Shown here one piece after another: positions 36,001-39,000 of a stretch of 64,000 nt of DNA. Positions within the stretch are counted from its first letter, which is position 1, and every line of letters starts with the position of its first letter. The stretch is taken from the IMG/VR virus record IMGVR_UViG_2718218360_000002; one strand, given 5' to 3'. The stretch is from a virus (lineage: Duplodnaviria; Heunggongvirae; Uroviricota; Caudoviricetes). The position numbers were made by a program.

Positions 36001-39000
36001 CACGCGAACAGGTTTTTTGAAATCCTCTTCGTCAAATCCAGCATCGTCCATTGCGACAACACCCCGTGATATTGCAACCGATAATTTTTTTGCTGTGCGC
36101 CAGTAAAAACCGCCTTTAATCCCAAGGCGTTTTCTGACTTTGTCATTTTTGGCTTCGTAATACAGTGCAATTTCTTCTTTATCAGTGCTCATTGATAAAC
36201 CTCATAACTATTTTAAGGTTGTACGAATCCCTGCTATTGCTGGCATGCTTAATCAACGGGTATGGCGTTAATACGGCTGGCGGGTTATCCAGCCGGTATT
36301 TCGTTATTCAGGTACAGCGATACTTTGTTTAACGGGAGACATTCACCGGAAATTTTTTGCTCGTCTCTTGCCTGATGGCAGGATTCTTTACTGGCATAAA
36401 TTCCGGTAATCACATTCTGTGGCTCACCTGTTATAAGAAAAACCGTCATCATCAGTGCAAACGCTGAACTCACTGCTGCCCTCCGAAAATGCCAAGTTCA
36501 AGAAGGGCAATTCTGGAGAGTATGGAATTATCATTGAGAAGATAAGGCTCATATTTTCTCATCCTGATGGCGTCTTCAGTAAACTCCCGGTTACTGAGCA
36601 GAATACCAATATTAAAACACCCTTCAGACGTATTAACGTTTGGTAGTGACGTTTCCATTATCGCGTCCTCAACAATGAATTTTGTGATGCGGTGCCTGGT
36701 GCCTCCAGGTGACGTTAACCAGTTAACAATTAACGCCGGATACAGAGAATCCACCCATAACACTGTTTTTGGTTTTAACTGTTCCGCGTGCGCTCAGCCG
36801 CATTCACCACATCACAAAATTCACTTTAAAAAGGGCGGCAGAGCAGTCACGGAGTAAAACTGATACCGCCAAACGTCACCAGAAAATTGATAACAGAGGG
36901 CGTTGCAGCGGGGTTGTCACTTAAGCGTATGGTCAGCCTGACAACCCGGTGTCCTCAAGGGGAAGGAATAACCCCGCCATACTTACCGCCGCGCCATTTC
37001 GCGGATTGCCACAACCAGAAGCGCACGGTCGAAGAAATTTAACGGCAAGACTTATATGCAAAGGGATCTCGCCGTGCGCTTTCGTGTTATGCCCTGACTT
37101 TTCAGGGTAAATTAACCTGTGGAAACCTGTTTTTACTGGCGCTAATCAGTTAGCGTTTCTGGCTAACCAGCGATGCGCGGCAGCTTCGGTTTTAAACGTT
37201 TTACTTTTGGTATACGTCATCGCGGTAAACGTGCCGTCCTGATTGGGAAACACGCCACATACCAGAGATTCGTTGTTGCCAAGATTGAGCGTATCCATGT
37301 TGACCTCATTTGCCCTTAACGCCGGGGGGGGCGGAACTAAGACCTGTCGCACCGTTGTGCTTTGATGGGATATATTGTTCTCTTAAGATGAACATATGTC
37401 AACATTGTGAATGCGCAAGAGGCAAAAAAAACCGCCTTCCGGCGGTATTGTTTTGTAAAATAAAGAATTATTTTTGTCGCGTTATTGGGTCAACGTATTC
37501 TGAGTAAAATTCGGTCAGTTTTTGAAGGCGCATTTGAAAAGCTGCCAGCATATTTCTACGCTCTACAGGTGGCAGGTTTCTGTAAACATCAAGCAGGGCT
37601 TTCTCATCATCATCAAGCGCCTCTCTGTTTGTATCTTCTTTTCCTGTCAGTAGCCAGGAAAGGGAAACATTTGTCGCTTCTGCAATTTTGGCTGCGGAAT
37701 CTTTACTGATTGTCCCTCTTTTTTTCCAGGCGTTGACTGATGAGCGTCCTACACCAGCGATGCGCGCTAAATCTGAACCGCTTAAATGATGCTGTTGCGA
37801 GATCGTATCTAACCTTTCTGCCAGCGGGGTGTCGTATTGCTTTTTTCTCATGTCCATTTAGCAATTATAACCGTTCAGTGAACACTAACAATTCCTCGTA
37901 GTGTTGACTTATGTTCTCTTTAAGTGAACAATGTTGTGGCTGATTGAATTGGAGGTTGTATGACAGCATTGGACAAGGCAATAAAGATTGCTGGTGGTAT
38001 TCGTCCGCTAGGGCGTGCAATAGGGGCTTGGCCGTCTCAAATACACAAATGGGCAAATGAATACAATGGTCGAGTGCCGACAGGGGAGCGGGTTCGTCAA
38101 ATTTATATTGCAACTGGGGTGACTCCTCATGAATTGCGACCAGATTTATATCCGAATCCAACCGACGGGTTGCCTGCTGGAGATAAGGCTAACACACAAA
38201 ATACACCGGAGTTGATTCATGAAAATCAAGCATGAACACATCCGCATGGCGATGAATGCCTGGGCGCGTCCTGATGGCGAAAAAGTTCCAGCAGCTGGAA
38301 TAACCCAGGCTTATTTTGAGTTGGGTATGACGTTCCCAGAACTGTATGACGACAGCCATCCGGAAGCCCTGGCTCGCAATACCCAGAAAATTTTCCGCTG
38401 GGTAGAGAAAGACACCCCTGATGCTGTTGAAAAAATGCAGGCTCTGTTACCGGCGATCGAAAAGGCGATGCCGCCTTTGCTGGTGGCCCGTATGCGCAGC
38501 CACAGTTCTGAATATTACCGTGAGATCGTCGAACGGAGGGATCGGCTGGTGAAGGATGTCGATGATTTTGTTGCGTCAGCGGTTGTTTTGTATGACCAGA
38601 TGAATCGCGGCGGCCCGGCAGGGAATGCTGTGGTGATGCACTAAAAGCACGGTGTTCGGGGGTTTTATGAGCAGCAAGCTTCATGGTCTTGTCTGGGAAG
38701 GGTGCGCCTTCACCGGCATGATCTTATCCAGGGTGGCGGTTATGGCCCGTCTTGCAGACTACAGCAATGACGAGGGCGTGTCATGGCCTGCCATTGAAAC
38801 TATCCGGCGTCAGATCGGTGCAAGAAGTGAATCCACAGTGAAATCGGCTATTGCAGAACTGGCGAAAGAGGGCTGGCTGACGAAGGAAGAGCGTAAGGTC
38901 GGTGGGCGTAACGTAAGCAATATCTATCGGCTTAATGTGGAAAAACTTGAAGCAGCTGCAGCGGCGGCGCGTGAGGCATATAAACCAAAAAGAAAAATTA

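Follow-up and report, generated by a model that had tools for sequence, protein, structure and literature searches.

A 64,000-nucleotide stretch of the IMG/VR virus record IMGVR_UViG_2718218360_000002 (Caudoviricetes), here called the window, was analysed around a three-gene element at 37468-38644. In this element, a gene for a CI-type helix-turn-helix (HTH) repressor on the minus strand faces two overlapping plus-strand genes, one YdaS-type and one YdaT-like, the product of the latter starting MKIKHEHI. The three open reading frames had been described, with these same boundaries, in an initial annotation that took them for an immunity module in which a CI-type repressor opposes Cro-like YdaS and YdaT proteins, and the family matches given below bear out both the frames and the module. 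The 1.6-kb region surrounding them is 100% identical to chromosomes of Escherichia coli O157:H7, e.g. strain FRIK2455.

Profile searches returned both expected families for the rightward genes. The YdaS-type product matched Pfam PF15943 (YdaS_toxin) at 39.0 bits against a cutoff of 30 (E 7.1e-10, profile positions 1-63 of 65) and phrog_35, a family of transcriptional repressors; it also resembles the Cro proteins 5w8y (E 1.8e-4) and 3bd1 (E 1.3e-3) of the PDB by sequence, and is designated a putative Cro analogue on these grounds. The YdaT-like product matched PF06254 (YdaT_toxin) at 37.8 bits (cutoff 21) and phrog_163, labelled "CII-like transcriptional activator" (E 2.3e-47). Its closest structural matches were 8BT1, the YdaT of the O157:H7 prophage CP-933P (E 1e-88), with which it is identical at 134 of 140 residues (96%, 6 differences), and 3c4r (E 1e-79).

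The repressor aligned over its full length with DicA of the K-12 prophage Qin (26% identity over 110 amino acids), with which it has a C-terminal 'LPP.ERRNMLAAFQMRL' region in common, and scored 38.7 bits against the NCBIfam DicA model NF007257, under the curated cutoff of 101. All NCBIfam hits to generic HTH-antitoxin models were likewise sub-cutoff, and homologues in Salmonella are 73-81% identical. In an AlphaFold model (predicted local distance difference test score of 81.6), residues 11-71 fold into a five-helix HTH of the 434 type, which a linker joins to a helical hairpin formed by residues 83-121; the nearest full-length analogue in the PDB is SinR bound to its antagonist SinI. A Pfam scan of the 129 residues found no S24 peptidase domain, and only helices follow the HTH in the model. 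The protein is not of the autocleavable LexA/lambda-CI type and falls into the non-cleavable class of DicA, RacR, and the Gifsy repressors.

A consensus promoter scan covering 37050-38750 gave three promoter-like sites, each functionally sensible in position (Table 1). The leftward PL-like promoter, whose location corresponds to dicBp in Qin, and the rightward PR-like promoter form the arms of a 31-nucleotide inverted repeat (84% complementarity), one on either side of the repressor gene. Within the spacer of each lies a 19-bp palindrome, TGTTC-N9-GAACA, designated the left operator (OL) and the right operator (OR1), respectively. The exact palindrome occurs only twice in the 64 kb, both copies falling inside the inverted repeat (expected number, 0.055; probability of at least two, ~0.0015). 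The initial annotation had pointed instead to repeated gtgaaca/tgttgac half-sites in a spacer of ~100 bp. The spacer between the repressor gene and ydaS (37858-37959) measures 102 bp and does hold GTGAACA twice (37878 and 37924), above chance (15 copies in 64 kb, both strands; Poisson probability of at least two, ~3e-4), but its single TGTTGAC (37902-37908) essentially coincides with the -35 element of the PR-like promoter (TTGACT), and the left palindrome, which lies outside the interval annotated, had been missed. The TGTTC-N9-GAACA palindrome is the more informative repeat.

The third site is a PRM-like promoter whose -10 element stops 6 nucleotides short of the first ATG of the repressor gene, where a Shine-Dalgarno sequence is absent. 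From this spacing, the repressor transcript is expected to lack a leader and to start at the A of the ATG at 37857; the mRNAs of lambda cI and paaR2 are leaderless too (PMC8630535). The Prokaryotic Genome Annotation Pipeline (PGAP) places the start at the second ATG (37851, 127 amino acids), and both the 127- and the 129-residue forms occur in the protein collection searched; the first ATG is preferred as the leaderless start because of the promoter geometry. The PRM-like spacer contains a TCAGTGAACAC element that is a direct repeat of 37920-37930, carries one of the GTGAACA half-sites, and is a candidate second operator or Cro site. A full second palindrome at this place, CGTTC-N9-TAACA at 37872-37890 (8 of 10 positions), was considered and is reported as a half-site only, because its arms vary at the locus with an 81% identical repressor and only the central GTGAACA stays. 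Between the repressor gene and the PL-like promoter, a scan of both strands found an intrinsic terminator with a GC-rich hairpin (RNA fold of -13.7 kcal/mol, z -2.75).

These sites were compared across 29 IMG/VR loci encoding relatives of the repressor, which comprise 14 unique variants of the OR region and 15 of the OL region. Kept among them are the PRM -10, the TCAGTGAACAC block, the -35 elements, the palindrome arms, a Shine-Dalgarno sequence, and the terminator stem, whereas variation falls in the centres of the palindromes, the loop of the terminator, and the DNA between sites. The arms differ by single bases at L015, L017, and L028 for OL and at L025 for OR1. Both elements of the PR-like promoter and the -35 of the PL-like promoter are retained. 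The PRM-like -10 and the core at 37875-37885 are invariant in 14 of 14 OR variants, including the relative with the 81% identical repressor, and the whole PRM-like block is invariant in the 13 variants with a 98-100% identical repressor. At two loci with a 73% identical repressor, the PR-spacer palindrome is symmetrically altered to TGTTA-N9-TAACA, as would be expected if an operator bound by a dimer co-evolved with its protein.

The identities of the repressor and the Cro analogue track together (100/100, 98/89-99, 81/82, and 73/58%), whereas ydaT is exchanged independently, being present at 100, 94, 87, or 82% identity, as a Rac-type gene at 29-31%, or not at all. The immunity core (37468-38210) was found in 81 of 5,426 complete E. 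coli genomes and never in more than one copy, which suits an immunity determinant; the ydaT segment was found in 3,292 genomes, in up to 7 places each and in 6 in FRIK2455. The same module also occurs on viral contigs of 40-53 kb in IMG/VR. This pattern reads as textbook lambdoid mosaicism around an immunity determinant, with repressor, Cro analogue, and operators varying as one unit while the flanking genes recombine. The layout is likewise that of a lambdoid immunity region, with the repressor gene divergent from the cro position, putative operators in the PR and PRM spacers, and OL and the PL-like promoter on the far side.

CP-933P YdaT is a homologue of known structure. It is a tetramer with a POU-like HTH domain that binds 5'-TTGATT-N6-AATCAA-3' at the end of ydaS (PMC9986795), and it activates a PRE-type promoter of the repressor operon, for which it has been called a functional equivalent of lambda CII (PMC8630535, PMC9986795). 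In the window, the sole match to this sequence has no mismatches, holds the ydaT start codon in its 6-bp spacer, and is identical to the footprinted OM site of CP-933P; it agrees with the Rac YdaT-box ATGATTCATGAAAATCAA at 17 of 18 positions in the same geometry. The exact box is present in 19 of 19 related loci with ydaT at 81.6-100% (L004-L022), is one base off in L023 and L024 (ydaT at 83.7%) and in Rac-type loci, and is absent where ydaT is absent. By analogy with its homologues, the present YdaT is regarded as a CII analogue that would bind as a tetramer and activate a leftward promoter.

The region is, with high confidence, an ordinary lambdoid lysis/lysogeny immunity switch of an E. coli O157:H7 prophage in which the repressor faces a Cro-like and a CII-like regulator. 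The working proposed here leans on the homologous systems of CP-933P, Rac, and Qin with regard to DNA binding, bistability, the position and activity of the PRE-type promoter, and the route of induction. The short, non-cleavable repressor would be made from the PRM-like promoter as a leaderless mRNA ending at its own terminator and would bind as a dimer to the 19-bp palindromes in the spacers of the mirrored, outward-directed promoters. It would thereby silence PL, and with it DUF1391, the small RNA DicF, the division inhibitor DicB, exo, xis, and int, as well as PR, and with it the Cro and CII analogues and the O-like and DnaC-like replication genes. Once repression is lifted, the Cro analogue would compete at the same operator region and shut off PRM, giving bistability. 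A tetramer of the CII analogue on the box at its own start codon would activate a leftward PRE-type promoter and boost repressor synthesis while lysogeny is being established. Because the repressor cannot cleave itself and belongs to the GfoR/GtgR/DicA/RacR class, induction probably proceeds through an antirepressor, as in the Gifsy phages and with Rem acting on DicA, and not through RecA-stimulated self-cleavage; the literature on this class of repressors favours antirepressor control.

Table 1. Features of the immunity region and its flanking operons (window coordinates; functional names are predictions)
Feature	Position	Strand	Details
PL operon	36470-37298	-	DUF1391, DicF, dicB; order as in Qin ydfA-dicF-dicB
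dicB	36470-36658	-	Pfam DicB 9.4e-33
DicF small RNA	36833-36884	-	Rfam DicF 76.7 bits, gathering score 48
DUF1391	37146-37298	-	Pfam DUF1391 3.4e-29
PL-like promoter	37374-37402	-	TTGACA-17-AACAAT; 10/12 matches; toward DUF1391-DicF-DicB
Left operator OL	37376-37394		TGTTCTCTTAAGATGAACA; palindrome within PL spacer
Repressor-gene intrinsic terminator	37423-37453	-	bidirectional hairpin 37431-37446 + U8 tract
Immunity repressor, CI analogue	37468-37857	-	129 amino acids; Pfam Phage_CI_repr E 1.8e-12; HTH_3
PRM-like promoter	37864-37891	-	TTGTTA-16-TATAAT; 10/12 matches
Candidate second operator or Cro site	37875-37885		TCAGTGAACAC; GTGAACA half-site in PRM spacer
PR-like promoter	37904-37932	+	TTGACT-17-AACAAT; ahead of ydaS-ydaT and replication genes
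Right operator OR1	37912-37930		TGTTCTCTTTAAGTGAACA; palindrome within PR spacer
Putative Cro analogue, YdaS family	37960-38235	+	91 amino acids; Pfam YdaS_toxin (PF15943); phrog_35 1.6e-25
YdaT box	38212-38229		TTGATTCATGAAAATCAA; 0 mismatches to TTGATT-N6-AATCAA
Putative CII analogue, YdaT family	38219-38644	+	141 amino acids; 17-nucleotide overlap with ydaS
O-like replication initiator	38652-39620	+	PR operon, downstream; phrog_391 4.5e-106
DnaC-like helicase loader	39627-40367	+	PR operon, downstream; NCBIfam PRK12377 479 bits; phrog_50

Several observations weigh against this interpretation. No antirepressor was found in PHROG and Pfam scans of seven open reading frames of the nin region; the frame at 44169-44447 (92 amino acids, phrog_1212, annotated as of unknown function) was tried as a Rem and has no detectable similarity to it. 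The prophage lacks a LexA box, the only LexA-like site (CTGT-N8-ACAG at 31413) being at chance level and outside it. Each promoter is served by a single full palindrome, compared with three per side in lambda, the second OR element being a conserved half-site. The right half of the YdaT box doubles as the conserved MKIK codons of ydaT, so that coding constraint may explain part of its conservation. A PRE-type promoter could not be convincingly located when the minus strand of ydaS was scanned with relaxed settings: the best candidate (TTTTCA-16-TATTTT, 38198-38225, minus strand) reached 8 of 12 matches and two other sites were weaker. In Rac, the YdaT-activated promoter lies ~190 bp from the box. 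Finally, portal and DUF968 are pseudogenes in the identical reference prophage, so what the switch governs today may be no more than a defective element.

Three side observations concern these same sites. The frame at 44169-44447 sits between hokD and DUF968, where Qin has its antirepressor gene rem. The -35 of the 38198-38225 candidate falls at the centre of the YdaT box, which resembles the geometry of lambda, where CII sites flank the PRE -35. A terminator-like hairpin followed by a T-run (38286-38300, minus strand) lies antisense in the 5' part of ydaT; it is weak, with 6 pairs of which 3 are GC, and could terminate an oop-like antisense RNA.

The initial annotation had gone further than an immunity module and, from the toxicity of a derepressed ydaS-ydaT pair in the Rac prophage, suggested an addiction-like cassette. 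On such a reading, YdaS and/or YdaT are toxins silenced by the repressor, and the cassette keeps the prophage in place because cells die on losing repression or the element. The Pfam names of the two families, matched above cutoff as described, invite this view, and the Rac precedent itself holds: in K-12, racR is reported to be indispensable, with lethality when ydaS/ydaT are derepressed or expressed (PMC5700373, PMC5700377), and Rac YdaT acts on the host rcsA promoter, whose activation leads to filamentation and death (PMC11879457). Growth defects have also been reported on prolonged overexpression of CP-933P YdaS. An addiction role does not follow from these data, however. For the CP-933P YdaT, which is the one 96% identical to the present protein, toxicity went undetected, and its authors, who describe a CII-like activator, state explicitly that YdaS/YdaT "do not constitute a TA system" (PMC8630535), TA standing for toxin-antitoxin; Jobling's critique reads Rac the same way. 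The toxin names date from a 2007 prediction that later work has not supported (PMC9986795) and are a historical misnomer, not evidence of addiction. Neither YdaS nor YdaT gave a hit in PADLOC, a library of defence systems, and no toxin or antitoxin family was among their NCBIfam hits (one sub-cutoff domain hit for YdaS, none for YdaT).

The arrangement of the locus also argues against addiction. As in an immunity region, the two genes occupy the cro and cII positions ahead of replication genes, their operators change together with the repressor, and the core is found in a single copy. Post-segregational killing would not be possible, because the genes would be off in the lysogen, leaving no pre-made stable toxin, and would be lost along with the repressor. 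A cell in which only the repressor was inactivated would very probably suffer, as happens with racR and dicA, from the release of DicB, DicF, and the lytic genes, but this is a property of any prophage repressor. The cassette is accordingly considered highly improbable. The prophage does carry a hok/sok type I TA locus at 43315-43639 (sok RNA at 43315-43489, 111.7 bits; hokD at 43484-43639), and the true addiction-type element, if there is any, is this one and not ydaS/ydaT.

In the FRIK2455 record, the lambdoid prophage holding the module starts at a fragment of ompW and proceeds through int, xis, an exonuclease gene, DUF1482, dicB, DUF1391, and the HTH protein to genes annotated as "transcriptional regulator" and "toxin YdaT family protein," two replication genes, DUF1627, a nin-type region with hokD, rusA, and a Q-type antiterminator, with the genes for lysis and the head after that. 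This gene content bears on a second alternative, in which the prophage is defective and the switch now gates DicF, DicB, and other left-operon genes for the host, with no lysis/lysogeny decision left to make. The portal and DUF968 pseudogenes, the presence of DicF and DicB in the PL operon, and the 100% identity of the region across many O157:H7 genomes are in line with such domestication, and the literature on Qin describes DicA/DicC as a bistable switch that gates dicBF, responds to Rem and to stress, and has a proposed host role. However, the reference prophage retains, by its annotation, intact genes for integrase, excisionase, replication, Q, lysis, terminase, and capsid, and the occurrence of the module on 40-53 kb viral contigs points the same way. 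Domestication is possible but not the likelier course; it would leave the molecular mechanism of the immunity switch as proposed and change only its present use to the cell.

Another lambdoid prophage lies directly upstream, at the intact ompW, with its own DicA-like, Cro, and YdaT trio. Two lambdoid prophages stand in tandem at ompW, and the immunity region described here belongs to the second. The tandem is visible at ~32156-33457 of the window and at 4360-6174 of L033 as an intact ompW and integrase gene followed by an ompW fragment and a second integrase gene, and both prophages have int-xis-exo-DUF1482-dicB left arms. Identical 19-mers at 4678-6518 and 61789-63629, at a constant offset of 57,111 bp, suggest that the late (tail-region) genes of the two prophages form near-identical repeats in the window. 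The neighbouring prophage had been considered as the paaR2 element and turned out otherwise. Elsewhere in the window, the Rfam family STnc100 (48416-48616, plus strand, 150 bits) adjoins the anti-GcvB small RNA AgvB (48619-48680, minus strand, 96.5 bits) in the late-regulatory region of the prophage. In the predicted 5' untranslated region of the PL transcript, a G8 homopolymer (37324-37331) reads G8, G7, or G6 in L004, L005, and L008, the rest of the ~160-bp OL stretch being identical; slippage or sequencing error could account for this variation.

Because a nearly identical YdaT and its box are found on several heteroimmune cores (in FRIK2455, six ydaT places with one copy of the present core), the YdaT of an induced or incoming phage could trans-activate repressor synthesis in other resident prophages, forming a cross-talk network that stabilizes lysogeny. 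This idea is put forward tentatively and is rather doubtful. YdaT proteins of the Rac and CP-933P types cross-bind and cross-activate, and this prior demonstration limits its novelty. Cross-talk with the tandem neighbour was dropped as a case, no YdaT box being found in L033 even with one mismatch allowed. If true, such cross-talk would span O157:H7 prophages, including those that carry virulence genes.

The kind of system is well known, and its YdaT has essentially been crystallized already; the specificity of this repressor, Cro analogue, and operator set appears to be uncharacterized so far. The chief value of the locus is a correction, in that the label "toxin YdaT family protein" in Pfam and PGAP annotation invites TA readings of a standard phage switch. 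It also provides a clean additional example, in which the YdaT box is exact, OL and OR mirror each other, and repressor, Cro analogue, and operators co-vary. The TGTTC-N9-GAACA immunity specificity is carried by a subset of O157:H7 prophages and by prophages of other E. coli, Shigella, and Salmonella. Since the switch gates the division inhibitors DicF and DicB, it could bear on which prophages of enterohaemorrhagic E. coli co-induce.

Comparison with lambda cI-cro-cII shows the same layout, in which mirrored operator-promoter modules flank the repressor gene, the PRM transcript is leaderless (predicted in the present case), and cro, cII, and the replication genes follow on the right, although sequence similarity between YdaS/YdaT and lambda Cro/CII is undetectable (PMC9986795). 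Unlike in lambda, the repressor has no S24 autocleavage domain and no N gene stands next to PL. The Gifsy repressors GfoR and GtgR of Salmonella are likewise small and without a cleavage site, and DicA and RacR have been placed in their class in the literature; Gifsy antirepressors are controlled by LexA, whereas neither an antirepressor gene nor a LexA box was found in the present prophage.

The module had initially been called Rac-like, which holds for its organization but not for its sequence. Gene order and protein families are those of racR-ydaS-ydaT in K-12, and the YdaT box lies on the ydaT ATG in both, but RacR is 43% identical over only 28 amino acids of the HTH, YdaS 30%, and YdaT 31%, too little for an orthologue of the Rac module. 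The left arm holds dicF and dicB in place of the kilR and sieB of Rac, and the toxicity of Rac YdaT was not seen for the CP-933P type. The term is loose because the repressor aligns over its full length with Qin DicA and because the left arm, with DicF and DicB, is that of Qin.

Qin dicA-dicC/dicBF shares with the present locus the architecture of its repressor (HTH plus a helical C-terminal region with the 'LP..E....L' pattern) and the succession of the repressor gene by a same-strand promoter leading to DUF1391 (ydfA-like), DicF, and DicB. DicA is likewise of the non-cleavable class, under antirepressor (Rem) control and bistable. The YdaS-type Cro analogue is unrelated to DicC, however, and the present locus has a CII analogue of the YdaT family and intact replication genes, whereas a homologue of Rem was not found. 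Another close system is PaaR2/YdaS/YdaT of CP-933P, which has the same order of repressor, Cro analogue, CII analogue, and replication genes, the same YdaT operator at the ydaS/ydaT junction, and a repressor mRNA that is predicted to be leaderless in both. The repressor gene stands alone in the present module, with its own terminator, whereas that of CP-933P heads a paaR2-paaA2-parE2 operon. The operators also differ, being TGTTC-N9-GAACA here and GTTTAGTAA-type repeats in CP-933P, and the two modules are therefore predicted to be heteroimmune.

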